IMG/VR virus record: IMGVR_UViG_3300011443_000015
Coordinates: 2,274-66,273 of that record
Origin: a virus
Taxonomy: Duplodnaviria > Caudoviricetes
Direction: 5' to 3' (one strand)
Length of the DNA stretch: 64,000 nt
Positions 26,742 to 51,955 of the stretch are shown in pieces. The notes below the pieces were generated by a model. The model had not been told where the DNA came from, did not search any database, and worked only from the letters and a program-made list of their open reading frames with translations. The translations under genes were made by a program, and so were the position numbers. Each line of letters begins with the position of its first letter. Position 1 is the first letter of the stretch.

Positions 26742-26753
26742 TTGTTTTTGTAC

Positions 26754-34112: not shown

Positions 34113-34328
34113 ATGGCAAAACAGCAGAAGAAAAAAGAGGAGAGCACCTCGCTTGACCTGGGGTTATTGGATGACGGCACGGTGGTGATGCAGTTCGGCC
34201 GCCTCGTCAAACAGATGACCTTCACCGCAGCCCAGGCGAGAGCGCTCGGCGTCGGACTGATCGAGAACGCGACACACAGCGATTCTCGCTTGCGGGTCAA
34301 TTCGAACCTGCCGGTGAGGAAGATGTGA
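34113..34328 (+). CDS. Hypothetical protein
   Basis: 71 aa; GTGA coupling to the methyltransferase. Confidence 0.5.
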   Translation: MAKQQKKKEESTSLDLGLLDDGTVVMQFGRLVKQMTFTAAQARALGVGLIENATHSDSRLRVNSNLPVRKM

Positions 34329-34831
34329 CGCCGCGCCTCAAGACGCTCCTGACCAAGAAGAAAGGGATCTTGCTCGACATCTCCTTCGGCGGCAAGCCGC
34401 AGCCACGTAGCGTGACGCTCGGGCCGAAGGGTGATCTGAAACAAGATCCGCGCACGACACCGTTTCCACTCCCGGACAACTCCGTGCACACAGCGGTCGT
34501 GACCCACGTGTTGGAGTTTCTCCCACCGGAGAAATTCTTCCCGTGGTTCGACGAGCTGTGGCGGGTGATGCAGCCGGAGGGCGGCGTCTACGTCAGCGGT
34601 CCGTATGGCGGTGACGAGTCGTTCGGCTGGCTCTCGGACCCGACCCACAAGACGCGGGTGTTGGAGCAGAGCTTCACGTGGCTCGACCCGCGCACGCCGC
34701 TCTACAAGGAACATCCGAACGTCGGGCGACGGATTCCGAAGCCGTGGTGGCCGCTGACGCTGGCCCGCGTGCCGGGGACCGAAGGAACGATCTCCTACAA
34801 CGTGCTGCTTCAGAAGCGGGTGAAGCCATGA
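34325..34831 (+). CDS. Class I SAM methyltransferase (type 11-like)
   Basis: LLDISFGG, FPLPDNSV...HVLEF, ELWRVMQPEG, DPTH. Confidence 0.8.
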   Translation: MTPRLKTLLTKKKGILLDISFGGKPQPRSVTLGPKGDLKQDPRTTPFPLPDNSVHTAVVTHVLEFLPPEKFFPWFDELWRVMQPEGGVYVSGPYGGDESFGWLSDPTHKTRVLEQSFTWLDPRTPLYKEHPNVGRRIPKPWWPLTLARVPGTEGTISYNVLLQKRVKP

Positions 34832-35661
34832 CCCCGAAGACTGAAGAGTTCGTTCCGCTCACCGTCGTCGAAGCGGAAGCCGAGATCACGCTCGAGGCGA
34901 TGGCCGCGCGGATTCAGAAGACCCGCGACGAGCACGCGGACGTGCTCCAGAAGTATCACGAGATCTGGTACAACGCCGAGCACACGTGGGTCTATACGCA
35001 CTTCCTCGGCATCGGTCTGATGAAGTGCCCGAACGACCTGTGGATCTATCAGGCCCTGATGACGAACCTCCGGCCGATGACCGTCATCGAGACGGGGACC
35101 TACTCCGGTGGGTCAGCGCTCTGGTTCGCGTTTCTGATGGACATGCTGAGGATCGACGGTGGTCGCGTCTTCACCGTCGACATCAAGGACCAGCGGAAGA
35201 ATCCGCTCGTGCTACATCCGCGCATCACCTACCTGGCCGGGAACTCGGCGAGGCCTGAACTGGTCGACGCGATCAAACACACCATGCCGAAGGGGCCGGT
35301 GCTTGTCTGCCTTGACTCCGACCATTCCGCCGAGCATGTCCACAACGAGCTCGAACTCTACGCGCCGCTTTGCAAGGTCGGCGACTGGCTTGTCGTCGAG
35401 GACACGAATATCGGGTGGAGTGACAAAGTCGATCATGTGCCAGTGGCTCCAGGCGGGCGCTGCTCGTGCGGAGCGGACTGGCCGGACGCGTCTTCGAAGT
35501 GCCCGAAGGACAAGGGCGACCAAGGCGCGCGTGGCGGCTTGATCCAGTACATGGACAAGCACCCGGGCGAGTGGCGACAGGACATCTTGTCGGAGCGGTA
35601 TCTCCTCACGATGCATCCAGGTGGTTGGATGCAGCGCATCGCGGAGTGCAGCCATGTCTAA
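34828..35661 (+). CDS. CmcI/rhamnosyl O-methyltransferase-like
   Basis: KCPNDLWIYQ, VIETGT..GGSA, LDSDHSAEHV, LVVEDT. Confidence 0.88.
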   Translation: MTPKTEEFVPLTVVEAEAEITLEAMAARIQKTRDEHADVLQKYHEIWYNAEHTWVYTHFLGIGLMKCPNDLWIYQALMTNLRPMTVIETGTYSGGSALWFAFLMDMLRIDGGRVFTVDIKDQRKNPLVLHPRITYLAGNSARPELVDAIKHTMPKGPVLVCLDSDHSAEHVHNELELYAPLCKVGDWLVVEDTNIGWSDKVDHVPVAPGGRCSCGADWPDASSKCPKDKGDQGARGGLIQYMDKHPGEWRQDILSERYLLTMHPGGWMQRIAECSHV

Positions 35662-36400
35662 GCCCATCACGGCGGACATGCCGCTCACGAAGATGAACAT
35701 TATCAATCCCGACATGCAGATCCGCCACGAGATCACGGCGAGCCTGCGTGCTCACGGGAACCTGATCTACGACTTCACGCGCGCGTGGTATGCGTCGCCC
35801 TACACGTTCCAGGGCACGAAGTTCATGGGCTTCGAGGCGTGCAAGATCCCGCTCGACCTCTGGGTGCTGCAGGATCTGTTCTGCCAGTACAAGTTCCAGA
35901 CGGTCGTCGAGACGGGCACGGCCGGCGGCGGCACGACGCTCTGGTATGCGGTGCTGATGGACCTGCTCGGGATCGACGGGCATATCTACAGCATCGACCT
36001 CGACGACACGCCGACGCGGCCGACGCACCCTCGGATCACCTACCTCTACGGGAGCAGTATCGACCCGGCGATCGCGGCGCGCGTCGAGTTGAAGGGGCCG
36101 GTGCTGCTGAACCTTGATAGCAATCACCTCGCGTCGCACGTCCTCGCCGAGCTCGAGCTGTGGGCGCCACGTGTGCCGGTCGGGGACTGGTTGCTGGTCG
36201 AGGACACGAACGGGTCGCCGGTCATCGAAGACCCGCTCACCGGACAACTCGAACAGGTGGAGGGGCCGATGGCAGCGGTGATGGAGTATCTCGCGAAGCA
36301 CCCCGGCGAGTTCTTGCGCGACGTCGTGTGCGAGCGCTACTGGCTAACGATGAACCCCCACGGGTGGCTGCAGCGTGTGCGGGGGTGTGAGCATGGCTAA
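35654..36400 (+). CDS. CmcI/rhamnosyl O-methyltransferase-like (paralog 2)
   Basis: KIPLDLWVLQ, VVETGT.GGG, LDSNHLASHV, LLVEDT. Confidence 0.88.
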   Translation: MSKPITADMPLTKMNIINPDMQIRHEITASLRAHGNLIYDFTRAWYASPYTFQGTKFMGFEACKIPLDLWVLQDLFCQYKFQTVVETGTAGGGTTLWYAVLMDLLGIDGHIYSIDLDDTPTRPTHPRITYLYGSSIDPAIAARVELKGPVLLNLDSNHLASHVLAELELWAPRVPVGDWLLVEDTNGSPVIEDPLTGQLEQVEGPMAAVMEYLAKHPGEFLRDVVCERYWLTMNPHGWLQRVRGCEHG

Positions 36401-36575
36401 ACTCTATCCTCCGACAGGACTCGGTGAAGGAATGGGACATCCGATCCCGGGAGGTGTCGCTGGTCCAATTCTCGATGGAAAATTCGTCCACACGGACGAG
36501 TATTTCAAGAGATATCCGCCAAAGGATCGCGCGAACTACTGGCAGTGGCGCGTCGTGCTACAGGGGTCCGAGTAA
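36393..36575 (+). CDS. Small hypothetical protein in the modification cassette
   Basis: 60 aa, coupled to both neighbours. Confidence 0.5.
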   Translation: MAKLYPPTGLGEGMGHPIPGGVAGPILDGKFVHTDEYFKRYPPKDRANYWQWRVVLQGSE

Positions 36576-37396
36576 TGGCTAAGAAAAAGGCCACGATGCT
36601 CGCCCTGACGCCCGTCCACCCGGCGCCAGGCAAGGACAGCGTGCAGGTGTTGCTCGGCACGCCGACGCTCGGCACCGTCCATATCAACTGGTACAACGCG
36701 ATGGTCGGCATGGTAACGCCGCCGAACTGGTCCGTCGTCCGGAGCACGCCGACCGGCTACACCGTGGCCGACGCGCAGAACCTGCTTGTCGATAATTTCC
36801 TGCGGGGTCCGTTTCGCGCCCTCATCTTGATCGAGGACGACACGTGCCCGCCGCCCGAGACGATCCTGGTGTTCGACCGCTGGTTCTGGAAGATGGAGCG
36901 CCGCAAGGCGCCGCCTGTGGTCAGCGGCCTCTACCACATCAAGGGCTCGGCGGAGATCCGTCGCGGGAAGAAGGGTGGCATCGAACTGCTCGGTCCGGAG
37001 CCGCTCGCCTATCGCGGGGGCGGCACACGCGCCTATCGCGATTGGCAATACGGTGACGTCATCTGGGTCAGCGGCGTGCCGACCGGGGCGTTGCTGCTCC
37101 ACCGCTCGATCCTCGAGGCGTGGGCGCGCGAGGACGATGTCGAGACCTACACGCTGCCCGGCTATCCGTTTCCGGTGAAGAAGATCTTCCAGTCGCCGGC
37201 GCGGGTCTGGATGGAGGACGGCGGCACGCACGTCGCCTCAGGGACGTCGGACCTCTGGTGGTCGGACCAGACCATCAAGCGCGGACTCATGGCGAAGGCG
37301 GGCTACGCGTCGCTTCAGAAGAAGCCGTTTCCCTACATCATCGACACGAGCCTCGTCTTCAAGCACGTCGACCGGACGACGGGGGTGATGTACTAG
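36575..37396 (+). CDS. GT-A (GT2-like) glycosyltransferase
   Basis: GTP, ADAQN, LIEDD (DxD), VSGLY, TGALLLHRSIL, DTSLVFKH. Confidence 0.75.
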   Translation: MAKKKATMLALTPVHPAPGKDSVQVLLGTPTLGTVHINWYNAMVGMVTPPNWSVVRSTPTGYTVADAQNLLVDNFLRGPFRALILIEDDTCPPPETILVFDRWFWKMERRKAPPVVSGLYHIKGSAEIRRGKKGGIELLGPEPLAYRGGGTRAYRDWQYGDVIWVSGVPTGALLLHRSILEAWAREDDVETYTLPGYPFPVKKIFQSPARVWMEDGGTHVASGTSDLWWSDQTIKRGLMAKAGYASLQKKPFPYIIDTSLVFKHVDRTTGVMY

Positions 37397-38863
37397 ATGG
37401 CCGACATCTCTGTCAACGTCGTGAAGTCGAGCGGCGTCTCTCCCATCGAGGGGAGCGACGACTTGATTACGTTGTCCATCTCTGGTGGCGATCTGGTCAA
37501 CAGCCAGAATCAGATCGTGCGGTTACGCGGTGTGAACACTGAGGGCGTCGCGAACTTCAGGGCGTTCTACACGGGGGGCATCAACGCGTATATCGACCGC
37601 ATCGTCGGCTTCGACTCGACGGCGACCAAGTGGAACCCCAACGTCGTGCGGCTCAACTTCGAGCGGTATCCCTGCGCGGACCCGCCGCGCCTCTATCAGC
37701 CCGGCGACCCGCGCATTCCCTACTGCATTCCAGACACGTCGCAGTTCCCTGCCTGGCCCTCGTCGTCGACGGTGATTGAAGGGGCGGTCTACAAGTCCGG
37801 TGGCGTGCGCTATAGCGCCGCGAAGCGGCTCTGGCGGGCGGACATGGGGCAGGCGTGGAACCTGGGACATTTCGAAGTCGGCGACCGCGTCGTGGGCGTG
37901 ATCGATACGACCCATGTCTACGAGTGCATCTCGTTCGGCACGGATCTGTCGGGCGACTGGGGCGGTGGCCCTTCCGGCACCACGAGTCCGCAGACGGACG
38001 TGCTCGGGAACACCTGGAACTACATCGGCGAATGGGGTCTCACTGGGTCGTCGGAGCCCTTCAGTGGCGGCATCGACATGGAGGACTTCTACGGCGAGTG
38101 GTATATGGACGAGCGCGCCACGTGGACGCTGGTGGGTCCGGACCTCACGCCCGAGGAAGCCGAGACGGCGTGGACGACGTTCACCACGACGGTGCTCGAT
38201 CCGACCGTGCAGCGGTGCATCGACAACAACCTCTATTGCTTTATCTGCGACTTCGACTTCGGTCCAGCGGATCTTCCGCTGCGCACCGCCCGCATGATGG
38301 AGTTCTGGGATCGCGTCTCGCAGGGGCCGTGGAAGAACCACCCGCGCGTACTCTTCGATCTGTGGAACGAGAGCGAGGACCTTGGCGGGTTCAGCGGCTC
38401 GACCTGGACCAATCAGAAACCCTACATCCAGGACGCCGTCGACATGATCCGCGCGAACGGTGCCGATAATGTCATCCTCGTCACGACGCCGCAGTTCTGC
38501 GCCTATGTCGATCTGGCGACGGCCGACCCGTTGACAGGCACGAACATCATGTATGCGAACCACACATACAGCGCCTATGGCGACTTGATTAGCCGCACGG
38601 CGACCGCGCTCGCGACCGGGCAGGCCGTCTTCGTGTCGGAGTGGGGATCGAACCAAGAGACGGACGAGACGATCACCGACACGTTCGTCAACGACCTGAT
38701 GGAGATTGTCGAAGAGGATCGCGGTTCAACGGCGCCAGCCGCTGGCTGGGCAGCGTGGGCGTTTAGTCAGTATTGGTCACCCGTGTTTTTTACCGACGGT
38801 CTCTACACAGTGCCGAACTATTACGGCATTTCAGTGCGCAACCTATTTGACGAGTTTGCCTAA
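37397..38863 (+). CDS. GH5-family glycoside hydrolase with inserted carbohydrate-binding-like modules
   Basis: RLRGVN, NVVRL, DLWNES (acid/base), HTY, VSEWG (nucleophile), W..WAF. Confidence 0.8.
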   Translation: MADISVNVVKSSGVSPIEGSDDLITLSISGGDLVNSQNQIVRLRGVNTEGVANFRAFYTGGINAYIDRIVGFDSTATKWNPNVVRLNFERYPCADPPRLYQPGDPRIPYCIPDTSQFPAWPSSSTVIEGAVYKSGGVRYSAAKRLWRADMGQAWNLGHFEVGDRVVGVIDTTHVYECISFGTDLSGDWGGGPSGTTSPQTDVLGNTWNYIGEWGLTGSSEPFSGGIDMEDFYGEWYMDERATWTLVGPDLTPEEAETAWTTFTTTVLDPTVQRCIDNNLYCFICDFDFGPADLPLRTARMMEFWDRVSQGPWKNHPRVLFDLWNESEDLGGFSGSTWTNQKPYIQDAVDMIRANGADNVILVTTPQFCAYVDLATADPLTGTNIMYANHTYSAYGDLISRTATALATGQAVFVSEWGSNQETDETITDTFVNDLMEIVEEDRGSTAPAAGWAAWAFSQYWSPVFFTDGLYTVPNYYGISVRNLFDEFA

Positions 38864-39978
38864 TGGTAGATCTTCACGCGCGCGTCGGCGGTTTCGGCCG
38901 TAGCCGAATGATGATACAGGGCATATCAGGCACGTCTGGGGTGTGGACCAACGTCACGCCAGGCGACATGATTCTCGATCCCGATGGGACACCTGGTGGC
39001 GCGACGAACAACTACGGCTGTCAAGGTGTGTTCTCTGCGAACCTTGTTGATCTCCCGCAGCGCATGTATATGGCTGCGACCTATCAGAAGTTATGGGTGT
39101 CCGAGAACTATGGGGCCACGTGGACGCCTGTTACGATCACCGGCTCGAATCCATTCGCTGACGGCCGGCCGAACATGCGAGTCGCGCCGGACGGGAGCTA
39201 TCTCCTGACCACGGCGCTGTATCCGATCAACGGGCTGAGCAATGGCGTGTGGAAGTCGGTCGACGCTGGTGCGACGTGGACCAGGTATAGCCCTGGCGCC
39301 CCGAACGGTGATGATATCGGGTCCATAGATATCCTCTATTCTGACAAGACACGCGTCCTTTGCTCGTCTCATAGCGATAGCGGTGGTGGTAATTATCATT
39401 TCTATGAATCGGTTGACTCTGGGGCGACGTGGACGGATCAAGGCGCGATGCCGAACGGCGACGCGCATATGCGATTCATCAGTGCTGATTATCTTCTATC
39501 GCTTGGCGGTGGTGACAATGGGTCTGGCCCTGGAACCTACCGAGGCACGCGGTCTGGCTCCTCGTGGCCGTGGACATGGAGCTGGTCCTCGGTTGCCCTT
39601 CAGCAGCACTGGCATAGCGACTCTCAGATCTTTATCGATCCTGTGACGGGCTACATCTATACCGGTGGCGGGATCGGTATCGAGCGTAGCACGAACAACG
39701 GCGCGAGCTTTTCACTGATCGAGTCGACGTGGTCGGGCGGGATCGTGGCGACGGATAGCACGATCTACAGTTCGGCCAGTTATGCGACGCACGGCACCTT
39801 CGGTCCTTATTTACAGAGCGCACCGCGAAGCCCCGGCACATCATGGAGCGACGATGCCAGTGGCGCATCGGGTTCGTTGAATAACGGCTGGATTCATGCG
39901 GACGCGGTCACGGACGGATCGCGTTGGGCGATTGTGACTGGCAACTGGAACGCGGGCGCGTGGAGGTATATCGAATAA
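38863..39978 (+). CDS. Asp-box (BNR) beta-propeller, GH74/sialidase-like
   Basis: SENYGATW, SVDAGATW, SVDSGATW, STNNGASF. Confidence 0.75.
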   Translation: MVDLHARVGGFGRSRMMIQGISGTSGVWTNVTPGDMILDPDGTPGGATNNYGCQGVFSANLVDLPQRMYMAATYQKLWVSENYGATWTPVTITGSNPFADGRPNMRVAPDGSYLLTTALYPINGLSNGVWKSVDAGATWTRYSPGAPNGDDIGSIDILYSDKTRVLCSSHSDSGGGNYHFYESVDSGATWTDQGAMPNGDAHMRFISADYLLSLGGGDNGSGPGTYRGTRSGSSWPWTWSWSSVALQQHWHSDSQIFIDPVTGYIYTGGGIGIERSTNNGASFSLIESTWSGGIVATDSTIYSSASYATHGTFGPYLQSAPRSPGTSWSDDASGASGSLNNGWIHADAVTDGSRWAIVTGNWNAGAWRYIE

Positions 39979-40604: not shown

Positions 40605-40609
40605 GAGGC

Positions 40610-40768
40610 ATGATGGATGAAGTCGCTATTGGCATGGCCGAAGAATTGTTCGTCAAGCTCACGTCACCCGTGATCCAGGTCCGTGCATCGGTGGCGAACA
40701 CCGTTGAGATTACCTGGATCACCGAAACCGGTGAAGTGCTTCGTGTGCAGCAGGTGACGTTCGAATAA
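40610..40768 (+). CDS. Small beta-rich protein (52 aa)
   Basis: AGGAGG SD; contains EVLRV, resembling the next gene's repeat. Confidence 0.5.
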   Translation: MMDEVAIGMAEELFVKLTSPVIQVRASVANTVEITWITETGEVLRVQQVTFE

Positions 40769-40776
40769 ACCGTTAG

Positions 40777-43701
40777 ATGGCCATCACCTACATTTCCCCA
40801 TCGGCGCTGTCCGGCACGACGGACTCCACGACGCTGAACATCACCCTGCCGACCGTGCAGGCGGGCGATGTCATGCTGTTGGAGTATGTCCATCGTGGCG
40901 CGACGGCCGGCACGTTGGGTGGGGTAGGGGGTTCGGGTTGGAACAATAAGCTCTCTCGGGACTTTGCGACGGCGACGTTCAGCGCCCACCTCTACTGGAA
41001 GCGGTGCGACGGCTCGGAGAGTGGTGACGCGCTCACGGTCACCGGCTTAACGAACTCGTGCGCAGGCTGCGTGACGGTCTATCGCGGCGTCAAGAGCACG
41101 GGCGATCCCTTCGAAGCCGCGACGGCCGAGGATAACGCGTCGGCCGACGAGTCGCACGCCGCTATCACGACGACGACCCCCGGCGCTTGGGTGGGGCTGA
41201 CGGTCGGCAATTCGCCTGACGTCGCAGTGACCTCGCCGAGCACGACCTCGCCAGGCGCGTTGACGCAGCGTGCAGAGCGGCTGAACACGACCGGCACCGA
41301 CACGTCGATCTGCAGCAATTCCGCAGAAAAGGCCACAGCCGGATCGACGGGGGCGTTGACGTGGTCGGTATCCCCGAACGGGCCCTCGGCCTCGTTCGCG
41401 TGGGCGTTGACACCGGAGTTGCTAGCAACACCGACGGAGTCATTGAAAGTCGGGGACGTGATCGTCAATGTCCTATTGACGGTCTTGCTGGCCACGGTGC
41501 CCTCAGAAGTTGTCAAGATCACTGACGAGGTCCAGGCACAGTTAGTCAATCAAGATCTCCTGGCGTCGACGACTGAGGGAGTCAAGGTCGGCGCGAGCGG
41601 CTTCGCCGAGATGGTCCAGTTCGCGGAACTGGTCAAGATTGGTGACGGGCCGGCCGTTGGCGAACTCGTCACTGATACCGGCGATCTCTCGCGGAACATT
41701 CCGGCTGAGTCCCTTCGGGTCATTGACGACCCGGTGCTGGCCACGCGGGACCTGTCGCGGGATGTTACTGCAGAATCCCTTCGCGTCATCGATGGACCTG
41801 TTGAACCCGCGATAGCCGGTAACGATCTCGTACGCTCACTGACGGAATCCGTCAAGGTTGGCGCGAGCGGTTTCGCGGAGATGGTCCAGTTCGCGGAACT
41901 GGTCCGCATTTCTGATGGTCCCGTCTCGGCCCAGCTCTTTGCGCTGGGTGACCTCGAGGTCTCGAAAACAGAGTCGCTCAGGATCAGCGACATCGGCTGG
42001 GCGGAGATCGGTATCGACGAGACGCTGAAGGTCGCAGATGCGATCACGGTTGCGATCGATCCCGAGCAGGCGAGTCCGTCGGAGTCGCTCAAGGTTGTCG
42101 ATACCGTTACGGTGTCGATTAATCCTGAGCAAGCCAGCCTGTCAGAATCGCTCAAGGTTGTCGATCAGCTTCTTGGACCGACGATCGATCCGGAGCAGAC
42201 GGCACTCACGGAATCGCTCAAGGTCGTCGATACCGTTACGGTCTCGCTGAACCCCGAGCAAGCCAGTCCGTCGGAATCGCTCAAGGTCGTTGACCAGATT
42301 CTTGGACCGACACTCGATCCGGAGCAGACGGCCTTCACAGAGTTGCTCAAGGTCGTCGATGTCGTCGTCGTCACGCTCGACCCAGAACAGGCCGCATTCT
42401 CTGAGTCGCTCAAGGTTGTCGATACCGTCGTCGTTTTTATCAATCCGGAGCAGGCCACCCCATCCGAATCGCTCAAGGTTGTTGACGAGATCAGCGTCGC
42501 GCGGATCGATGCGGGATCGTTAACGGTCACGCTCGACGAGATCTATAAGGTCTCGGACGTCCCGAATCTCACCCTCAATCCCGAGCAGGCCACGGCGACC
42601 GAGTCGCTCAAGGTCGTGGACGCGGTTAGCGCCACGATTGCTGAGGCGAATCTGGCCGTCAGTCTTTCTGAGAGCCTGAAGGTCGCCGACGAAGGCGAAG
42701 TCGAGTTCGTCAAGGACGAAACGATCCGCATCGTTGAGCAACTGACCGTTGTCCTCGGCGGCGCCCTCACGACGAGTCTCTCAGAGTCCCTCAAGGTCTC
42801 GGACACGATCTCCGCGTCGCTGAATCAGCTCTCGGTGAGCCTCTCGGAGAGCCTCAAGGTTGACGATTCGGGCCAGGCGGAACTCGTCCAGTTCGAGTCG
42901 ATCCGCATCTCGGATGTGCTCCTCGCCGAGATGCAGACGCCGACGGATCTCTATGCGACCGTCGCAACAGAGTCCCTGAAGGTTGTCGATGCGGTGAGTG
43001 CGGCGATCCAGCTCGCCGTCGCGATCAGCACCGAATCGCTGAAGGTTGTTGACACGCTCTCGAGTCCGTGGCTCGACCCGATTCAGACGATTGTCACCGA
43101 GGCGCTCAAGGTCGTCGATCAGAATCCGCCGACGGTGGCGGAGGCCTCGACGCTCCTTGTCAATCTCGTCGAGTCGCTCAAGGTCGTCGACAGTACGCCG
43201 GTCGGACGGCTCAATCCGATTCAGGTGTCGGTCGCAGAAGAAGTACTACAGGTCGTCGACAGCACGCCGGTCGGACGGCTCAACCCGCTCCAGATTGCCA
43301 TTTCGGAATCGCTGAAGGTTGTGGACGGCCCGCCGATTCCGGCCTCGGGCACGACGCTGGTTGCCAACCCGACCGAGATCGTCAAGGTCGTCGACACGGC
43401 GCTGACCACGCTCGACCCGGAGGAGACAAGCCGCACCGAGTCGCTCAAGGTCGTCGACGCGCTGAGCATCACACTCGACCCCGAGCAGGCAGCGCTCAGC
43501 GAGTTGCTCGGGGTGGCGGACAGTCTGACTGTTGCACTCAGCCATCTCGAAGTGACTCTCACGGAATCGCTGAAGGTCGCGGACCTCCAGCCACGCTTCG
43601 GCGGGCCGGCGATCATCGACTCGACGGGTTCCTACATCACGGTGATTGATTCTGTCGGTTCCTATGTCACCACGATCGACATCGTTGGGGAGTATCTCTA
43701 A
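40777..43701 (+). CDS. Long repetitive fibre/shaft protein (~34 ESLKVVD-type repeats)
   Basis: N-terminal ~210 aa beta-domain, then 14-26 aa repeats; Ser/Thr/Val/acidic rich. Confidence 0.8.
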   Translation: MAITYISPSALSGTTDSTTLNITLPTVQAGDVMLLEYVHRGATAGTLGGVGGSGWNNKLSRDFATATFSAHLYWKRCDGSESGDALTVTGLTNSCAGCVTVYRGVKSTGDPFEAATAEDNASADESHAAITTTTPGAWVGLTVGNSPDVAVTSPSTTSPGALTQRAERLNTTGTDTSICSNSAEKATAGSTGALTWSVSPNGPSASFAWALTPELLATPTESLKVGDVIVNVLLTVLLATVPSEVVKITDEVQAQLVNQDLLASTTEGVKVGASGFAEMVQFAELVKIGDGPAVGELVTDTGDLSRNIPAESLRVIDDPVLATRDLSRDVTAESLRVIDGPVEPAIAGNDLVRSLTESVKVGASGFAEMVQFAELVRISDGPVSAQLFALGDLEVSKTESLRISDIGWAEIGIDETLKVADAITVAIDPEQASPSESLKVVDTVTVSINPEQASLSESLKVVDQLLGPTIDPEQTALTESLKVVDTVTVSLNPEQASPSESLKVVDQILGPTLDPEQTAFTELLKVVDVVVVTLDPEQAAFSESLKVVDTVVVFINPEQATPSESLKVVDEISVARIDAGSLTVTLDEIYKVSDVPNLTLNPEQATATESLKVVDAVSATIAEANLAVSLSESLKVADEGEVEFVKDETIRIVEQLTVVLGGALTTSLSESLKVSDTISASLNQLSVSLSESLKVDDSGQAELVQFESIRISDVLLAEMQTPTDLYATVATESLKVVDAVSAAIQLAVAISTESLKVVDTLSSPWLDPIQTIVTEALKVVDQNPPTVAEASTLLVNLVESLKVVDSTPVGRLNPIQVSVAEEVLQVVDSTPVGRLNPLQIAISESLKVVDGPPIPASGTTLVANPTEIVKVVDTALTTLDPEETSRTESLKVVDALSITLDPEQAALSELLGVADSLTVALSHLEVTLTESLKVADLQPRFGGPAIIDSTGSYITVIDSVGSYVTTIDIVGEYL

Positions 43702-44845: not shown

Positions 44846-45228
44846 GCCTGCTCGACACGCTCCGCAAAGGCGTGCTGACGATCGACAAGGCGACGAAGTC
44901 GCTCCAGACGTCGGTCAGCTACGTGAAGAACTCCGCGCATGACGAGTATGGGGCGCCGGCGACCGTCGCGGCGGCCACGACCCTGAAGGCGATTGTCGAC
45001 TACCGGCACGTGCCCGTCCGGAGCAAGGAAGGGATCACGGTGATGGCGTCTGCCACGCTGACGCTGCTCAACGTCCAGGAAGTCTACGACGCGACGGGCG
45101 GACTCGGCGTCGACACAGACGACGAGTTCACGCTGCCCGACGGGAGCAAGAGCAAGGTGATCAGCGTCGGCGGCTTCATGGACGCGGGCACGTATGGCCC
45201 GATTCCGCTCACGATCTATCTAGGCTGA
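44842..45228 (+). CDS. Head closure/stopper protein
   Basis: HDEYG..., DDEFTLPDG; synteny. Confidence 0.6.
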   Translation: MSLLDTLRKGVLTIDKATKSLQTSVSYVKNSAHDEYGAPATVAAATTLKAIVDYRHVPVRSKEGITVMASATLTLLNVQEVYDATGGLGVDTDDEFTLPDGSKSKVISVGGFMDAGTYGPIPLTIYLG

Positions 45229-45992
45229 TGAAGAACGTCACCATCTGTCTCGTCTACTTCCGGAGCTTGGGGTTGCAGAACCTCGAGGCGGCGCTCTACT
45301 CCGTGAAGCGACAGGACATGACGCGAGTCAATTCGATCGTGGTGGTGGACAACAATACGGACGATTCGATCGCGTCGATACAGGCCGTGATTGATAAAAC
45401 GGATTTTCGCGTGCCGGTGTGCTTCTCGTCGTTCAAGCACCACGACCCGACGAAGACGCACGCGTGGTCGACGAACGCCGCCGTGGAACGGTCAGACACC
45501 TCGTGGGTGTTCTTCACCAGGGCGGACTATCTGCTGGCGTTCGACGCGGTCGAGACGTGCGTCGCCGCGATTCGCCATGAGAATCAGTTCATCGTCGGCG
45601 GCTACTACGACGTCGGCCTCGATGTGTATCGCTGCGAGCAGACGACGTGGCGCACGGACGGGCCGGTCGCGCTGCGTCCACACGGGCGGGAGTTCGACCA
45701 CGTGATGATCGACTCCGGCGTGTGGCTGACGACGCGCGAGGTCTTCAACCGCGTTGGCGGGATGGACGAAACAATGACGGTCTGGGGCCATGCGCAGACG
45801 GTGTTCCAACACAAGATCTACCAGGCGGGCGTGGAGTTCACGCGCGTGCCATCTGTCGTCTTTTACCACACGGCTCACGGCTACGAGACGCCTCGCGATC
45901 ATAGCGCGGCGACCGTGCAACTGCAGTCGATGGGCTTGAACATTCGCGAACTGTGGGCGCGTTACGACGGCCCGGATAACCCGTACCGATGA
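45228..45992 (+). CDS. GT-A (GT2/GT7-like) glycosyltransferase
   Basis: IVVVDN, NAAV, RAD (DxD variant), VGGMDE...WG, FYH. Confidence 0.8.
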   Translation: MKNVTICLVYFRSLGLQNLEAALYSVKRQDMTRVNSIVVVDNNTDDSIASIQAVIDKTDFRVPVCFSSFKHHDPTKTHAWSTNAAVERSDTSWVFFTRADYLLAFDAVETCVAAIRHENQFIVGGYYDVGLDVYRCEQTTWRTDGPVALRPHGREFDHVMIDSGVWLTTREVFNRVGGMDETMTVWGHAQTVFQHKIYQAGVEFTRVPSVVFYHTAHGYETPRDHSAATVQLQSMGLNIRELWARYDGPDNPYR

Positions 45993-46705
45993 GACCCTAC
46001 ACACGCGCGCTCGATCCGCAGGACTACCGCTACCTGAAACATGCGGAGCCCATCGCCGATTTCCAACGGGCGATGACGGTGGCGCACTGCATCTCGCACC
46101 CGCACAAGATCTGGGAAAACGCGTCGATCATGCAGCAGCTCGACGAGCTCGAGGTGCCGAAGACGGCGAAGATCCTCGACGTCGGCAGCGGTGGGATGTT
46201 CTTTCCGCCCTACCTCGCGTCGGTCTGCGGCTATCGCGACCTCGAACTGACGGACTCGATGTCGAACATGGACATCAACCTCTACGTGCAGTCGCAGTGC
46301 CGCGCCTACGGGATTCAGATGAAGGTGCATTCACTCTTCGCCGAGGACATGTCGGCGCTTCCGTCCGAGGGATGGGACGTGGTGATGTGCATCTCGGTCA
46401 TCGAGCATATCGCCCGCGCGAACCACGACGCCGCGTTGCGCGAACTGTGGCGCCTGACGAAGCCTGGCGGGTTGATCTTTCTCACGTCGGACTACTTCCG
46501 CAGCGAGCACGGTAGCTTCCAGCAGGCGCAGTATGACGCGTCGCCCTACAAGGCCGGGCAAGAGACGTGCTATCACAAAGAGTTCGTGTTGGATATTCCT
46601 AACAAGATCGACGTGGAGTTCGTGGGCGACACCGACCTCGACTATCGCGGGGATTTCGTCCACAACTATTCGTTTGTCAACATTTGTCTGCGGAAGGTGG
46701 CCTAG
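45989..46705 (+). CDS. Class I SAM methyltransferase
   Basis: ILDVGSG, DVVMCISVIEH, LTKPGG. Confidence 0.85.
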   Translation: MRPYTRALDPQDYRYLKHAEPIADFQRAMTVAHCISHPHKIWENASIMQQLDELEVPKTAKILDVGSGGMFFPPYLASVCGYRDLELTDSMSNMDINLYVQSQCRAYGIQMKVHSLFAEDMSALPSEGWDVVMCISVIEHIARANHDAALRELWRLTKPGGLIFLTSDYFRSEHGSFQQAQYDASPYKAGQETCYHKEFVLDIPNKIDVEFVGDTDLDYRGDFVHNYSFVNICLRKVA

Positions 46706-48306
46706 TGGGAATCATCAAGATGGCGTCGTCGAGCTACCAGATGAGCGACCAGAGCGTCTGCGGCGCGGTCGAGACCTCGGGCCTGCCGATCCTGCCCGTC
46801 GGTCGGAAGAAGATCCACTGCGTGCTGCCGTCCTCGCCGTGGCTCGCCGACTCGAAGACCAACATCCCGCTAGGAGTGCTCTATGTCGCAGGACTGCTCC
46901 GAGAACAAGGTCATGACGTGGTCGTTACCTCCATGCTCGACAAGCGCTACGAGGGGAATATCCATCTCCCCGACGACGTCATGGACGCTGACGTGCACAT
47001 GTTCGGATTTTGTACTCCTCAGTTCGGCGAAGCCCTTGAGCTCGCCGCCTACATCAAGGACCGCAATCCGGAGGCGCTTCTCGTCGCTGGTGGCCCGCAT
47101 CCTTCATACGAGCCGAAAGAAACCAAGGCTGCCGGTCGGCAGGCACAGTATCACGTCAAAGGCGTTCTGCCCGAGCGTCGTGACTACGCTCCGCAGGACG
47201 GCACTGGCCCGCTCTTCGACACGGTGGTAGTCATGGAAGGGGAGCGCGTCACGCTGCAGCTCCTCTCCGACTGGAATCAAGGCAAGCTCCAGCCCTTCTA
47301 CTACGGCGACAAGGCCGATGCGATGGACCTCGACATGATCCCCTTCCCGGCGTGGGATCTGCTCCCCGACGATCACATCTACAACGACGGCGTCGCGGTG
47401 ATGAAGAAGCCCTACATCGAGAGCCGCGTGCGGGCCGGGAAGTTTCCCGTGATGTCGCTCATCGGCACGCGCGGGTGCCCCTACAAGTGCACGTATTGCT
47501 CGACGCCGTGGATCGGCCAGAAGCCGCGCTACCGCTCGCCGCAGAACGTCATCGCGGAGATGAAGGCGGTGATGGACAAGGGCGTCCACATGTTCAAGTT
47601 CCAGGACGACACCTACACCCTGCACAAGACGAAGCTCCGGGAGCTCGCCACGGCGGTGCATGCAGAGTTCGGCTATGGCACGTTCGCGTCACGCATTCAC
47701 ACGCGCGTGAACACGATGGACGATCACGTGGCTGAGAGCTTGAAGCTGATGAACTGCAAGGTCACCTGCTTCGGGATCGAAAGCGGATCACAGAAGGTAC
47801 TTGATGCGAATCAAAAGGGTACGAAAGTTCAGCAGAATACGGATGCTGTCCGACGTGCTAAAGAGCATGGGTTCTATACCATCGCGTTTCTTGTCATCGG
47901 TATGGCTGGTGAAACGCTGGAAACGATGCGCGAGACGCAAGAGTGGCTCCTCAGCGTTAAGCCCTATCTGGATAGCTGCAACCTGGCCGTCGGCATCCCG
48001 TATCCCGGCAGTCGGTGGTGGACGCACCCGCACGAGAGCGGGATCGACATCGTGGACTACAACTATGACAACCAGTGGATCGTCGGCTTCTCGGATCGGG
48101 ACGAGATCCTTGTTCGCCCGCATGGCGCGACGGTCGAGGAAATGTTCCAGATCAAGAACGAGATGTTTCATTTCCTTGTTGAGCACGGGTGGGCGAAAGC
48201 CGAATGGCAAGAGGATGTCCGCATCCGCCGCGCACAGGAAGCTGCCGCGCAGTCAGGTGTCCTTCCCTCCGCCGCCGCGAGCACGCTGACCTACGCCGGG
48301 CACTGA
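46705..48306 (+). CDS. B12-binding radical SAM enzyme (class B methyltransferase-like)
   Basis: PLGVLYVAGLL..GH.V, GGPH (B12 domain); RGCPYKCTYC (CxxxCxxC); FGIESGS; PYPGS. Confidence 0.92.
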   Translation: MGIIKMASSSYQMSDQSVCGAVETSGLPILPVGRKKIHCVLPSSPWLADSKTNIPLGVLYVAGLLREQGHDVVVTSMLDKRYEGNIHLPDDVMDADVHMFGFCTPQFGEALELAAYIKDRNPEALLVAGGPHPSYEPKETKAAGRQAQYHVKGVLPERRDYAPQDGTGPLFDTVVVMEGERVTLQLLSDWNQGKLQPFYYGDKADAMDLDMIPFPAWDLLPDDHIYNDGVAVMKKPYIESRVRAGKFPVMSLIGTRGCPYKCTYCSTPWIGQKPRYRSPQNVIAEMKAVMDKGVHMFKFQDDTYTLHKTKLRELATAVHAEFGYGTFASRIHTRVNTMDDHVAESLKLMNCKVTCFGIESGSQKVLDANQKGTKVQQNTDAVRRAKEHGFYTIAFLVIGMAGETLETMRETQEWLLSVKPYLDSCNLAVGIPYPGSRWWTHPHESGIDIVDYNYDNQWIVGFSDRDEILVRPHGATVEEMFQIKNEMFHFLVEHGWAKAEWQEDVRIRRAQEAAAQSGVLPSAAASTLTYAGH

Positions 48307-48307
48307 G

Positions 48308-49000
48308 ATGTATACCAAGGTCTCCGTTCTCGTCCCGACGCGTCACCGGATCGATCGTCTGCAGACGCTCCTCGCGTCGTTTGAGCGGACGGTTGACGGG
48401 AGCGAGGCGGAGCTTGTCTTCCGCGTCGACGAGGACGACGCTGAGACGAGGGCGTTTATCAACGGCTTGTCCCACCCATGCGTGATGGTCGTCGCGCCGC
48501 GCGGGCGCGGCTACGCGGACATGCCGTTGTTCTTCAATCAGTCCGCAGAACGCGCCACGGGCGACGTCTTGATGTGCGGCAACGACGACATGATCTTCCA
48601 GACCGTCGGGTGGGCGAGGTCTATACTCGACGTGGCGAACGTGTATCCTGACGGGCTCTTTGACCTCGGGGTCTCGACGCTCAACACCGACAATTTCCCC
48701 TTTTCCATTGTCTCGAAGAAGGCCGCCGAGCGGATGGGGTTTCTCTGGGACCCGCGCGTGTTCTGGGGGGACATCTTCTTGCGCGATGTCATGTCCCACT
48801 TCGGCCGGTGCTTCCTGCTGCCCAACGTTCAAGTCGATCACGATTGGGCAGGGTTCAGACCTGACAAGGTCTACCTGGAACAGCTCGCGCCGGGCGAGGC
48901 GACCAAAGACATCCTGCGGCGCAACCCGAACTATTGGACGGAGGTCCATCGTGTGGCGGTGAATGAGGCGGTTGACAGACTGAGAGGGCTACTCGCATGA
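48308..49000 (+). CDS. GT-A (GT2-like) glycosyltransferase
   Basis: VLVPTR, VDEDD, GNDD (DxD), FPFSIVS, WGD, DHDW. Confidence 0.8.
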   Translation: MYTKVSVLVPTRHRIDRLQTLLASFERTVDGSEAELVFRVDEDDAETRAFINGLSHPCVMVVAPRGRGYADMPLFFNQSAERATGDVLMCGNDDMIFQTVGWARSILDVANVYPDGLFDLGVSTLNTDNFPFSIVSKKAAERMGFLWDPRVFWGDIFLRDVMSHFGRCFLLPNVQVDHDWAGFRPDKVYLEQLAPGEATKDILRRNPNYWTEVHRVAVNEAVDRLRGLLA

Positions 49001-49650
49001 CGGCTGACGTGGGACGAAAGCCAATCAACATCTGCGTGCCCGTGCTGAAACGATACGACTTGCTCCGAGAGTTGGTGAAGTCCTGTCGGAGCAGCAACAC
49101 GCGGCCGGACCACTATTACATCATCGACAACGGGCAGAACCGCCCGGCGTTGATGAAGGCGCTCGGCGACTTCGACATCACCATCAAGGTGCATACGCCG
49201 ACGAAACCGCTCGGCGTCGCGGAATCGTGGAACTGGTTCTTGGCGAAGGTGCCGGAGGAGCGGGTCATCGTGAACGATGACATCACGTTCGGCCCCGACT
49301 CGCTCGATCTGCTCCTGGCGTCGAGCGCCGACCTCGTGTGGGCGGCCGGCTGTGGGTTCTCGTGCTTCGTGCTTCGGGATAGTTGCGTGGAGAAGCTCGG
49401 CACCTTCGACGAGACGATCTCGCCTGGCTACGGCTACTACGAGGACGAGGACTACCTCCAGCGCCTCGACGGGCGCGGCACGCGGGCGCCCTCGGCGACG
49501 TCGGAGAGCGTCAGCGCGGGCGTGAAGCACTACAAGAGCGCCACGCTGGAGGCGAGTCGGCATACGGAGCTGCTCGAGCATCATCGGAAGTTCAAGATCG
49601 CGCAGGCGAACTACGCCAAAAAGTGGGGACTGGAAGAGGCGTTCAAATGA
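48997..49650 (+). CDS. GT-A (GT2-like) glycosyltransferase
   Basis: IIDNG, GVAESWN, VNDD, GTFDE, YYEDEDY. Confidence 0.85.
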   Translation: MTADVGRKPINICVPVLKRYDLLRELVKSCRSSNTRPDHYYIIDNGQNRPALMKALGDFDITIKVHTPTKPLGVAESWNWFLAKVPEERVIVNDDITFGPDSLDLLLASSADLVWAAGCGFSCFVLRDSCVEKLGTFDETISPGYGYYEDEDYLQRLDGRGTRAPSATSESVSAGVKHYKSATLEASRHTELLEHHRKFKIAQANYAKKWGLEEAFK

Positions 49651-49883
49651 TTTCCAAAGCCGAACGCGCGCACATCGTAGAACTGAAGAAGTGGTCCATC
49701 GAGGCACGTGCCGCGATGGAGAAGCTACAAGCAAATCCACTGCTGGCACCGCTCCTGAAGCGTATTGCTTCAGATGAAGATGCTGCACTCCTCTTCAAAA
49801 ATGTCGATTGGTTGGTCGCACTGATCGAGCGTGAAGAACATCGGTATGGCGTCAGGGCTCTGACGAAGGCATCGCAACGATGA
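49647..49883 (+). CDS. Hypothetical helical protein
   Basis: 78 aa, ATGA overlaps at both ends, lower GC. Confidence 0.5.
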   Translation: MISKAERAHIVELKKWSIEARAAMEKLQANPLLAPLLKRIASDEDAALLFKNVDWLVALIEREEHRYGVRALTKASQR

Positions 49884-50413
49884 GCTGCATCACGTTCATC
49901 GTCCCCACGGTCGGGCGCCCGTCGTTGATCAAGACGCTGCAGTCGATCGAGACCTATCCGGGTGACGAGATTCTGTTGGTGAGCAACTCGTTTCGCGTCG
50001 CTGACCCACGCATCACCTACATCGACTGTCCACCTGGAAATGATTGGGGACACACGGAGCGGACGTTTGCGACGCCGCAGGCACGGTGTTCGTACATCGC
50101 GCACATCGACGACGACGACGTGTATACGCCGGGGGCGCGGGCGTTGATGCAGGACGTGATCGAGAAGTCGCCGGGTCGGCCGGCGATGTTTCGGATGCGG
50201 TTTCCGAACGGGATCACGCTCTGGGCGGACAAGGAGATCACGTGCGGCAATGTCGGCACGCCGATGTTCCTCCTGCCGAACGAGCAGTGGCGGTTTCGTC
50301 CGTGGGAGCCGTTCGTGGGCGGCGACTGCAAGTTTCTCGAACTGACCGGGTGGACGGCGGATGACTTTGCATGGCGTCCCGAGATCACGGTGCTCTTGGG
50401 GCATAACACTTAG
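49880..50413 (+). CDS. GT-A (GT2-like) glycosyltransferase, short
   Basis: FIVPTVGR, HIDDDD, GGD. Confidence 0.8.
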   Translation: MSCITFIVPTVGRPSLIKTLQSIETYPGDEILLVSNSFRVADPRITYIDCPPGNDWGHTERTFATPQARCSYIAHIDDDDVYTPGARALMQDVIEKSPGRPAMFRMRFPNGITLWADKEITCGNVGTPMFLLPNEQWRFRPWEPFVGGDCKFLELTGWTADDFAWRPEITVLLGHNT

Positions 50414-50426
50414 CGTGGGGCTAACG

Positions 50427-50717
50427 ATGAATACTAACAACATACGATTGACGCACTATCCGGACAGGGGATTTGTCGGCGCCGTAAAGACCGAGATCAA
50501 CGGCATCGAATTACAAGAAGTTCGCGAGATCAAGCTGCTGTGCCCTATTGATGGTCTCGCGACGCTTGAAGTAGAGCAATTCGTGGGACCGGACATCGAT
50601 GTAACGCTGGAAGGCCTCGTCTATCCAAAGATCGTGTTCGTCGATGACTCCTTCGAGCTTCATGTCGAACATGCGTCGCCGACTGGGCCGACGCGCTACT
50701 GGGTAACACGCCGATGA
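50427..50717 (+). CDS. Hypothetical protein
   Basis: 96 aa, lower GC. Confidence 0.45.
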   Translation: MNTNNIRLTHYPDRGFVGAVKTEINGIELQEVREIKLLCPIDGLATLEVEQFVGPDIDVTLEGLVYPKIVFVDDSFELHVEHASPTGPTRYWVTRR

Positions 50718-51955
50718 AGAAACTCTTGTTCGTCGGCGATAGTCCGGAGTGTCCGAGCGGCTTCGGCCGCGCGACGCGGGAGATCCTCGATCGGGTGCGC
50801 GATCGGTATGACGTCACGGTGCTCGGCATCAATCATCGAGGCGATCCGGGCACGGTGCCGTATCCGGTCTACGTCGCGGCGGCCGGCGGGGATGCGTTCG
50901 GGATCGGGCGTCTGCTCTGGATGTGCGACGTCGTGAAGCCCGACGTGGTGGTCATTCAGCAGGACGGCTGGTATTTCCCCTACTACGTGAACGCGCTCCG
51001 GAAGCGGAAGCCGAACTACGAGTACGAGTCGCCCGTGGCCGCAAGCCTCCCGATCGTCGCGGCGGTGGCGGTCGACGGCAAGAACTTTTCCGGCGAGTGG
51101 ATCGAGAACGTGACGCTCGCCATCTTCTGGACGAAGTTCGCCGAGTCCGAGGCGCGGCAGGGCGGCTACATCGGCCCGTCGAAGGTCATCCCGCTCGGGG
51201 TCGATACGGACATGTTCTATCCGGTCCCGCGCGAGGGCGCGCTCGAGCGCCAGCGGATGGGGACGCTCAAGAACGCGTTCATCGTCGGCAACGTCAACCG
51301 CAACCAACCCCGGAAGCGGTGGGACCTGACGATCAAATACTTCGCCGAGTGGGTGCATTCGTTCAAGGTCAAGGACGCGCGACTGTTTCTCCACTCGGCA
51401 CCGACCGGCGACTGCAGCGTCAACATCGAGAGCCTCTGCCGCTACTACGGCGTGCTCAACCAGGTCGTGATCTACACGCCGGAGCCGTTCTACGGCAAGG
51501 CCGATGAGGACATGCGGGACGTCTACAACTGCTTCGACGTGCTGATGTCGACGACGCAGGGCGAGGGGATGGGCCTGACGGCGATGGAGGCGATGGCCTG
51601 CGGCGTGCCGTGTATCCTGCCGGACTGGTCCGCGTTCGGCGACTGGGCGAAGGGCGCGGCCGCGCTGATCCCGTGCACCTCGACCGCGCTGCAGTCCTTC
51701 TCACCCTCGGTGAACGTGATCGGCGGCGTGGCGGACGAGAAGCAGTTCGTCGCCGCGCTCGACCTGATGTATCGCGAGAAGGACCACCGGCTGAACGTCG
51801 GACAGTATGGGCGGGGACGCGTCTGCGAGTCGCGGTTCCAGTGGAAGACGATCGGGGATCAGTGGATCGAGGCGCTCGACTCGCTCTTCGTCGAGAAGCC
51901 CGTCGTGTCGACGGAGATCTGGCAAGACCTGAAGGCGACGGAGGTGCAGGTCTAA
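50714..51955 (+). CDS. GT-B (GT4) glycosyltransferase
   Basis: SGFGR, IPLGVD..FYP, NRNQPRK, EGMGLTAMEAMACG (EX7E). Confidence 0.9.
   Translation: MKKLLFVGDSPECPSGFGRATREILDRVRDRYDVTVLGINHRGDPGTVPYPVYVAAAGGDAFGIGRLLWMCDVVKPDVVVIQQDGWYFPYYVNALRKRKPNYEYESPVAASLPIVAAVAVDGKNFSGEWIENVTLAIFWTKFAESEARQGGYIGPSKVIPLGVDTDMFYPVPREGALERQRMGTLKNAFIVGNVNRNQPRKRWDLTIKYFAEWVHSFKVKDARLFLHSAPTGDCSVNIESLCRYYGVLNQVVIYTPEPFYGKADEDMRDVYNCFDVLMSTTQGEGMGLTAMEAMACGVPCILPDWSAFGDWAKGAAALIPCTSTALQSFSPSVNVIGGVADEKQFVAALDLMYREKDHRLNVGQYGRGRVCESRFQWKTIGDQWIEALDSLFVEKPVVSTEIWQDLKATEVQV

Follow-up and report, generated by a model that had tools for sequence, protein, structure and literature searches.

The stretch analysed here, referred to as the window, comprises 64 kb (64,000 nucleotides, positions 2,274 to 66,273) of one viral record of 66,273 bp, IMG/VR IMGVR_UViG_3300011443_000015, which derives from a tailed phage (Caudoviricetes) and has a CheckV completeness of about 78%. 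Two cassettes of enzyme genes, located at 34.3–37.4 kb (cassette 1) and 45.2–52.0 kb (cassette 2), lie within its morphogenesis operon. Analysis of the sequence leads us to favor, with somewhat better than even confidence, the view that these genes specify a phage-encoded, late cytoplasmic glycosylation and glycan-tailoring system that decorates virion proteins. In this mechanism, soluble glycosyltransferases (GTs) of the GT-A fold and a GT4 enzyme would load host nucleoside diphosphate (NDP)-sugars as an oligosaccharide onto at least one structural protein, either ahead of assembly or in its course, with Ser and Thr residues of virion proteins as the presumed acceptors. The sugars would be O-methylated by two methyltransferases (MTases) of the CmcI/rhamnosyl O-methyltransferase type and by two class I MTases, all dependent upon S-adenosylmethionine (SAM), and would undergo a radical modification, most likely C-methylation, catalyzed by a radical SAM enzyme containing a B12-binding domain. 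Host NDP-sugars are proposed as donors because genes of the Epimerase and NTP_transferase families, sought as markers of NDP-sugar synthesis, had no match in the 66-kb record.

A virion target is favored because the enzymes of cassette 2 are coupled to neck genes and because two lineages whose capsids are unrelated both carry their core among the head-tail genes. The linkage of cassette 1 to a fiber, the diversification of cassette 2, the lack of membrane spans in the enzymes, and the failure to find an integrase argue in the same direction. Virion proteins are preferred to DNA as the target because enzymes needed by the known DNA glycosylation pathways were not found.

An initial annotation of the window had placed eleven enzymes in the two cassettes. 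All eleven genes were located at the expected positions on the + strand (as are all other window features described below, unless stated otherwise), in frames supported by the GC content of third codon positions (GC3). The proposed content of five GT-A enzymes and one GT4 was retained for GT4 and for three GT-A enzymes, designated GT2a, GT2c, and GT2d, which are firm assignments by sequence comparison; GT2b and the protein encoded by positions 36575–37396 are probable GT-A enzymes only. Of the two class I MTases, one (45989–46705) is firm and the other (34325–34831), which scored below the Pfam cut-off, is probable. The two CmcI-like O-MTases and the B12-domain radical SAM enzyme were recovered with Pfam scores above the cut-offs. 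The enzymes had also been described as soluble, in agreement with the finding that none contains a 19-residue Kyte-Doolittle window above 1.45 and, thus, that none has a predicted membrane span.

Cassette 2 forms an island in a slot of the neck region. Its upstream edge (44066–45228) consists of the genes for the head-tail adaptor Ad1 (44066–44845; phrog_477, E 8e-20) and for a 128-aa protein (44842–45228), with ATGA and TGATG overlaps. Its downstream edge is the gene for Neck1, a tail-completion protein (51955–52344; phrog_5, E 7.7e-7, and a weak HK97-gp10-like match), which has a TAATG overlap at either end. The location of the cassette between head-closure and neck genes, as initially annotated, is therefore established for Neck1 by phrog_5, whereas the head-closure label of the 128-aa protein is based on position only.

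The first gene of the island, GT2a (45228–45992), encodes a GT-A glycosyltransferase (PF00535, E 1.5e-10; Glyco_transf_7C, E 1.6e-6) whose profile matched chondroitin synthase in the PDB (E 3.9e-7) and which had no tblastn match in 50,697 phage records. It is followed by genes for a class I SAM MTase (45989–46705; Methyltransf_11, E 3e-10, and related families), for the B12-binding-domain radical SAM enzyme (46705–48306; PF04055, E 2e-21; PF02310, E 9.3e-12), and for GT2b (48308–49000). GT2b is a weaker, GT-A-like call: its PF00535 score of 20.7 bits is below the cut-off, its profile matched GT-A structures only (TarP, DPMS, and PglI, with a best E value of 0.007 for TarP), and its NDD motif is invariant. 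GT2d (49880–50413) is a short GT-A enzyme with a weak Pfam match, a profile match to PglI in the PDB (E 2.7e-9), and an invariant DDDD motif. These five genes are referred to as the core. GT2c (48997–49650), a GT-A enzyme scoring 25.9 bits with PF00535, above the cut-off, is an accessory of the lineage to which the window belongs (lineage A) and is paired with GT4 (50714–51955), an enzyme of the GT-B fold (Glyco_trans_1_4, 44.0 bits for a cut-off of 27; Glycos_transf_1, 37.0 bits for a cut-off of 26.4). Two small open reading frames (ORFs) complete the island. The first (49647–49883, 78 aa) is coupled by ATGA on either side, has a 43% identical copy in L002 (L, G, and P numbers are our labels for related loci, records, and database proteins), and matched no family. 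The second (50427–50717, 96 aa) has an ATGA overlap with the GT4 gene and no family match.

Stop/start overlaps of the ATGA, TAATG, or TGATG type were present at every junction from the fiber gene (40777) to the tail gene (52344), which supports the initial description of the enzyme genes as interleaved with structural genes. Since these overlaps link all genes of the interval, the enzymes are predicted to be made together with the adaptor, neck, and tail proteins. Promoter- and terminator-like sites in the interval were not above chance.

Among lineage-A relatives, at least four enzyme sets occupy the slot that extends from the 128-aa protein to Neck1; the relatives compared here all derive from metagenomic fragments. 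Type I, with the order GT2a-MTase-radical SAM-GT2b-GT2c-GT2d-GT4, is present in the window, L002, L003, L014, and L051. Type II (L030/L044) is like type I, except that a 412-aa protein matching Methyltransf_13 and Methyltransf_14 is present instead of the radical SAM enzyme. This protein has the architecture of TylC3/NDP-hexose C-methyltransferases, and a search for further replacements of the TylC3 type returned a single contig only, IMGVR_UViG_3300047471_000325. Type III (L033, L037, and L057) comprises a SPASM-type radical SAM enzyme, GT2c, a Methyltransf_24 enzyme, and GT4, and type IV (L049) comprises a GT2, an uncharacterised protein, a Methyltransf_24-like protein, a second GT2, GT2c, GT2d, and GT4. 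In every relative examined, GT4 was located immediately 5' of Neck1; an empty slot was never seen, and only GT2c and GT4 were common to every lineage-A relative examined. By analogy, the variability of cassette 2 resembles the O-antigen-type diversification of an exposed glycan.

The core GT2a-MTase-radical SAM-GT2b-GT2d was also found in a second lineage, B, again within the head-tail block. The capsid of lineage B is of the phrog_10 type and unrelated to that of lineage A, and the lineage has an adaptor and a major tail protein of its own; in L005, the genes run from the phrog_10 capsid through adaptor, cassette, and CgeB-like GT to the major tail. The core is accompanied in this lineage by an extra GT2 and by two CgeB-like GT-B proteins (PF13524). 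Both the cassette-1 GT-A enzyme and the repeat fiber were missing in eight of the ten lineage-B records, in searches for which the positive controls worked. The two cassettes had been presented as one system in the initial annotation. This is not upheld: gene content indicates that they are two evolutionary units, not one, because the cassette-2 core occurs without cassette 1 or the fiber in these eight records. Co-occurrence of the enzymes with a Ser/Thr-repeat fiber, for which the initial annotation had suggested a survey, was observed for cassette 1, wherever downstream sequence suffices, but not for the cassette-2 core in eight of the ten lineage-B records.

Two features of lineage B are reported here as side observations. 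The CgeB-like paralogues (L005:12990–14153; L006:7715–8632 and 14667–15770; L009:5987–7315 and 14980–16209) flank the core, with PF13524 E values of 1e-12 to 1e-16, and one of them immediately precedes the major tail gene. CgeB has been linked to spore-surface glycosylation in Bacillus. Upstream of the cassette, a conserved 200-aa protein (L006:7113–7718, + strand; same cluster in L004, L007, L011, L013, and L015) displayed a weak MptE/MAF_flag10-like match (E 0.0017, below the cut-off), a lead only; this domain is found in flagellin glycosyltransferases.

The radical SAM enzyme of cassette 2 contains the sequence CPYKCTYC at residues 258–265. The cysteines of this CxxxCxxC motif are all invariant in 11 sequences, as are 241 of the 533 positions of the protein. 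The radical SAM core scored 77.3 bits with PF04055, and the N-terminal B12-binding domain (residues 54–142) scored 45.3 bits with PF02310 (cut-off 32.1), which predicts cobalamin binding. The window protein is 79–95% identical to those of the relatives compared, versus 47–85% for the flanking GTs (47–64% with lineage B). At conserved four-fold codons, identity of the third position was only 0.40–0.52 in all cases, indicating saturation of synonymous sites. Because protein identity is high while synonymous sites are saturated, the conservation of the radical SAM enzyme indicates strong purifying selection rather than recent transfer. More than 115 metagenomic protein clusters were retrieved at 49% identity or above, followed by a sharp fall to 38% at the edge of the family; the longest contigs of these clusters reach about 123 kb. 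A pattern scan of 185,579 species genomes did not detect any relative, and the family was met in viral and metagenomic contigs only. With NCBIfam models, the best scores were 105–110 bits for cut-offs of 480–600, and no named subfamily was reached (HpnJ, PhpK, BchE, AprD4, GenK-like, and others).

A role of this enzyme in sugar C-methylation is favored because a sugar C-methyltransferase of the TylC3 type occupies the same slot in L030/L044. Comparative analysis thus points to a probable sugar C-methylase or other radical sugar-tailoring enzyme. This replacement and the strong matches of cassette 1 to the CmcI family are in agreement with the O- and C-methylated glycan envisaged in the initial annotation. 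The more specific proposal, that B12-domain radical SAM enzymes of a phage-specific family act on a glycan coat of the virion by radical chemistry and probably C-methylate it, is advanced tentatively, as we give it a little less than an even chance.

The sole match of the radical SAM enzyme in a cultured phage was in Streptomyces phage SF3 (L043; 26% identity, record positions 26181–27680). The SF3 gene adjoins thymidylate kinase and NUDIX genes near an integrase gene, in a context of nucleotide metabolism, and probably has another function. At least seven database clusters of the radical SAM protein contain inteins (Hint, Intein_splicing, or LAGLIDADG domains); in L015 (7955–10813, + strand), the intein-bearing protein is encoded by a single in-frame ORF of 952 aa. 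Inteins were also present within distant homologues of the cassette-1 GT-A enzyme (cases listed for both: P0005, P0045, P0053, P0061, P0073, P0089, P0096; P0144, P0157, P0192). Inteins mostly reside in highly conserved proteins, and their presence thus fits the extreme conservation of the radical SAM family.

Cassette 1 starts with the gene for the small class I SAM MTase-like protein (34325–34831). Its score with Methyltransf_11 was 19.2 bits (cut-off 21.2), the motifs D-I-S-x-G-G (DiS.GG) and VHTAvvTHVLE are kept, and comparison with the MTase encoded by 45989–46705 gave an hhalign probability of 87.8%. The limitation of the latter method is that pairwise hhalign among small enzyme families was too insensitive, missing even true GT2 relationships. 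Together, these data designate the protein as a probable small class I SAM methyltransferase. An ATGA overlap joins its gene to that of the first CmcI/rhamnosyl O-methyltransferase family enzyme (34828–35661; PF04989, RMNT_CmcI, 141.6 bits, E 3.5e-41), which is followed by a paralogue (35654–36400; PF04989, 124.8 bits, E 5e-36); the cut-off of this model is 23.2 bits. The two enzymes scored 120.9 and 107.8 bits with NF045824, the NCBIfam equivalog for mycobacterial RhmsylMtase, below its cut-off of 400, and the first enzyme matched CmcI in the PDB (E 9e-8). Homologues with 50–57% identity were found in six IMG/VR contigs, and tblastn returned no match in the 50,697 phage records. Relatives carry one or two copies of the gene, the second copy being present solely in L021, L027, and L032.

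The last gene of cassette 1 (36575–37396) encodes a divergent GT-A-like glycosyltransferase of 273 aa, assigned by transitive homology. This protein is the best conserved of cassette 1 (68–87% identity across 17 viral IMG/VR contigs) and contains the invariant motifs LIEDDTCPP, which is DxD-like, and GT.DL..S. No Pfam match was obtained with any of 14 members of the family, and its profile had no match in the PDB. Searching 1.8 billion proteins with this profile returned 292 homologues, the distant ones matching Glycos_transf_2 or Anp1 exactly on the aligned part. The protein is therefore read as a probable divergent GT-A enzyme on the basis of these matches and of the LIEDDTCPP motif. In the distant homologues, a C-terminal Methyltransf_11 domain or an additional GT2 domain at the N-terminus is often present; such fusions (P0216, P0217, P0229, P0264, P0268, and P0134) mirror the separate GT and MTase genes of the window. 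AlphaFold2 models of this protein and of the 210-aa protein described below, built from alignments of 14–15 sequences, were unusable (pLDDT, the predicted local distance difference test, of 38.7 and 34.8, respectively).

In all contigs in which cassette 1 was found, the gene order was 210-aa protein, small MTase, one or two CmcI-like enzymes, and GT-A. The conserved 210-aa protein (33427–34059; 24% Ser plus Thr) precedes every cassette 1 and is syntenic, with 50–93% identity, at each locus found. It had no match in Pfam or PHROG, and its closest named Atlas cluster is a podophage fiber gp80 domain (a lead only); it is possibly a fiber-related virion protein or an acceptor. Synteny of the cassette with the 210-aa protein was observed in 17 contigs with GC contents of 0.42–0.66. 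Wherever downstream sequence suffices, the cassette is followed by a homologous repeat fiber and a 121-aa protein. In two records, the module is remote from the cassette-2 core, by about 16 kb (G007) and 28 kb (G006); in G007, it lies upstream of a putative terminase-portal-capsid block, called by position, and not between capsid and adaptor. Because synteny is kept while the genome location differs, cassette 1 behaves, at the level of gene order, as a portable fiber module carrying its own tailoring enzymes. The fiber of the window (40777–43701, 974 aa) contains at least 30 repeats of 21–23 aa with the core [S/T]-E-S-L-K-V-V-D, and Ser or Thr is fixed at two positions in about 70% of the repeats. 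The repeat fiber and the 210-aa protein are the likeliest candidate acceptors for cassette 1. The gap ahead of cassette 1 is filled by a possible ORF of 66 codons (MAKQQKKKEE...; window 34128–34328, + strand), the end of which overlaps the start of the small MTase gene (GTGA); the same gap spans 150–1100 nt in relatives.

The cassettes might alternatively serve to modify the host late in infection, the target being a glycopolymer or surface protein such as wall teichoic acid, exopolysaccharide, S-layer, pilin, or flagellin; this could mask receptors, block superinfection, or stop progeny from re-adsorbing to debris. The top solved relative of the GT2b profile, TarP, is indeed a soluble prophage wall-teichoic-acid GlcNAc-transferase, GmaR, a flagellin O-GlcNAc transferase, is among the matches of GT2d, and the phage handles host glycans, since GH5 and BNR proteins are encoded between the cassettes. 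We nevertheless consider a host target unlikely. The enzyme genes are not moron-like but translationally coupled to adaptor and neck genes, and they occupy the same slot in two lineages with differing structural proteins. The enzymes are not accompanied by a membrane protein, no priming or flippase-type family was detected among the proteins scanned with Pfam, and no integrase or lysogeny gene was found in the record. The production of a free methylated oligosaccharide or glycosylated small molecule, or the action of the radical SAM enzyme and MTases on protein residues, would be in keeping with relatives of the radical SAM enzyme that include AprD4, PhpK, the MCR glutamine C-methyltransferase, and C-methyltransferases of ribosomally synthesized and post-translationally modified peptides, and with CmcI itself, an antibiotic-tailoring enzyme. 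This possibility appears quite improbable: scaffold-forming or export genes were not found, the genes lie within the neck operon, and a sugar-specific C-methyltransferase family occupies the radical SAM slot in a syntenic relative.

If the phage DNA were hypermodified, the GTs would glycosylate bases, and the sugars attached to DNA would be tailored by the MTases and the radical SAM enzyme. Enzymes of the GT-A and GT-B folds that act on 5-hydroxymethylcytosine are widespread in phages, and some of their clusters are near structural genes (bioRxiv 10.1101/2023.12.21.572611). In the same survey, however, about 65% of the GT contigs did not contain partners of the thymidylate synthase or TET/JBP type and were deemed less likely to act on DNA (bioRxiv 10.1101/2023.12.21.572611). 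In agreement with the initial annotation, which had reported that TET/hydroxymethylase and NDP-sugar genes were lacking, the Tet_JBP and Thymidylat_synt families had no match in the 66-kb record. A thymidylate synthase homologue and TET were also not found in five further, likewise incomplete core-bearing records, one of which is 92% complete, the TET search having no positive control at the strict threshold. Furthermore, the cassettes belong to the morphogenesis operon and are remote from the replication module, which is on the opposite strand. We therefore regard DNA as a very improbable target.

Several observations weigh against the decoration of virion proteins or against the chemistry proposed for it. 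Mucin-like Ser/Thr tracts were not detected on capsid, tube, or connector proteins of either lineage, and no convincing C-terminal Gly-Thr/Ser tag was found on virion proteins. The repeat fiber is not a universal target of the core, because the core is present without the fiber in lineage B. BLASTP comparison of all window proteins with Corndog gp34–41 returned nothing below an E value of 0.01. Wall polymers of the host are modified by soluble GT-A enzymes that prophages encode, for instance TarP, and the solubility of the enzymes is thus compatible with a host target. The closest solved structure to the radical SAM enzyme is AprD4 (E 1.4e-15), a sugar diol dehydratase and not a methylase, and the enzyme matches no named equivalog. 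Finally, as the record is only about 78% complete, genes that were not found could be located in the missing part.

To our knowledge, phage self-glycosylation has been proven in a few mycobacteriophages only. Glycosylation of mycobacteriophage virions shields the particles from antibodies. As related in PMC12363180 and PMC11256854, the virions of Che8, Corndog, and Myrna are glycosylated on capsid proteins (Freeman et al., 2023, Cell Host Microbe 31:1216). In Corndog, gp35–38, an MTase and three GTs, are encoded between portal and capsid, and the phage of the window is similar in that soluble phage GTs and an MTase are placed in the structural operon. Sugars are reportedly present also on tail-tube proteins in the work of Freeman and colleagues. 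The putative system described here differs from gp35–38 by the lack of detectable sequence similarity and by the number of enzymes (eleven versus four). It differs from the mycobacteriophage systems by the addition of CmcI-type O-MTases and of a B12-domain radical SAM enzyme, and by its split into a fiber-linked cassette and a neck-slot island. Cluster J phages contain an insertion of 8–10 genes between capsid and connector, including five predicted GTs and SAM MTases, for which a function was not demonstrated (Pope et al., 2013, PMC3706429). In gene content, this insertion is likewise a large GT/MTase block that splits the structural operon and differs among relatives (PMC3706429), but it includes a Ser/Thr kinase and is devoid of radical SAM and CmcI-type enzymes. 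The number of enzymes known in such systems had been set at about three in the initial annotation, which is too low. Since Corndog has an MTase and three GTs and Cluster J has five GTs and MTases, the present set is larger by degree and, in this respect, does not differ in kind.

Sequence homologues of cassette 2 were identified in the cyanosiphovirus S-CBS4, in which gp14–gp16 (a GT4, a 'galactosyl transferase', and a SAM MTase) are encoded between portal and head protease. The S-CBS4 gp14 and gp15 proteins are homologues of GT4 (31% identity, E 3e-38) and GT2c (28% identity, E 6e-13), respectively; the genes are also within the structural module, but only three are present, in another slot. 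Among eukaryotic viruses, PBCV-1 has N-linked glycans on its capsid. The a64r product of this virus combines GT-A domains with an O-methyltransferase domain and, in the portion of PMC4691112 that deals with it, is thought to attach a terminal rhamnose to the capsid glycan and to methylate it subsequently. The likeness lies in virus-encoded cytoplasmic GT-A enzymes and an O-methyltransferase; PBCV-1 differs as a eukaryotic giant virus, and a radical SAM enzyme is not mentioned in that portion of the text (PMC4691112). The window radical SAM enzyme shares the N-terminal B12-binding-type domain and CxxxCxxC core with class B enzymes (GenK/GenD1-type and AprD4), but the phage family is separate, all named NCBIfam models being far below the cut-off. 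GenK and GenD1 are sugar C-methylases. CmcI-type and B12-domain radical SAM enzymes are essentially absent from cultured phages (50,697 records searched). Together with the fiber-linked cassette and the diversification of the island with a non-orthologous replacement of the C-methylase, they constitute the new elements of the system.

The cassettes suggest that the trait is widespread among phages that have not been cultured and that differ greatly in GC content, that its chemistry, which would include radical SAM steps and sugars bearing O-methyl and probably C-methyl groups, is richer than previously known, and that enzyme sets vary as do those of bacterial surface-antigen loci. If the proposal is correct, a radical SAM step would be described for the first time in the tailoring of virion glycans, the production of infectious or protected particles would depend upon the host supply of cobalamin and Fe-S clusters, and a diversifying, O-antigen-like island would have been kept in the head-tail operon by two unrelated lineages of soil phages. 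Its confirmation would change the way in which virion surfaces are modeled with regard to host range, stability in the environment, and recognition by the immune system, and would add a new family of radical SAM enzymes that tailor sugars.

The window has a GC content of about 62%. Its left part contains, on the minus strand, replication genes encoding a Pol III beta-clamp homologue and an RNase_T-type exonuclease; a VapE-like protein is encoded on the + strand (18250–20367). The replication region is followed by the long plus-strand morphogenesis operon, which runs from terminase to tape measure. Its first part comprises the genes for terminase (21160–22374), portal (22544–24493), a MuF-like protein, a protease fusion, decoration protein (29484–29921), capsid (29962–31053), an Fn3 protein, and two small proteins, followed by cassette 1. 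The GH5 and BNR genes, the repeat fiber, Ad1, the 128-aa protein, cassette 2, and Neck1 come next, and the operon ends with a 1157-aa tail protein, tube candidates, and the tape measure. Megablast of the whole region returned no DNA-level match in the 50,697 cultured phage records, and the portal shares no more than 35% identity with those of cultured phages.

Between the two cassettes, a GH5 cellulase-domain protein (37397–38863; PF00150, E 2.8e-21) and a BNR/Asp-box protein (38863–39978; weak Sortilin-Vps10/BNR matches) are encoded by translationally coupled genes with TAGATG and TAATG junctions. They are likely to be virion-borne glycan depolymerases, outside the glycosylation chemistry. 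A GH5 homologue was found in none of the related loci, and a BNR homologue only in the single contig behind L022, L030, and L044. The Fn3 protein (window 31703–32920, + strand), encoded between the capsid gene and cassette 1, contains three Fn3 domains and is missing in some relatives (L025 and L026); its N-terminus is signal-peptide-like (MCRILRSTLALLLLLASSAFA, hydropathy 1.59), which was unexpected in a head module. The GC content of the lineage ranges from 0.42 to 0.66 (0.62 for the window, 0.51 for L003, and 0.42 for L028) despite a 93%-identical capsid in L025 and a 95%-identical radical SAM protein in L003. This spread implies either that the hosts differ greatly in composition or that amelioration has been rapid.

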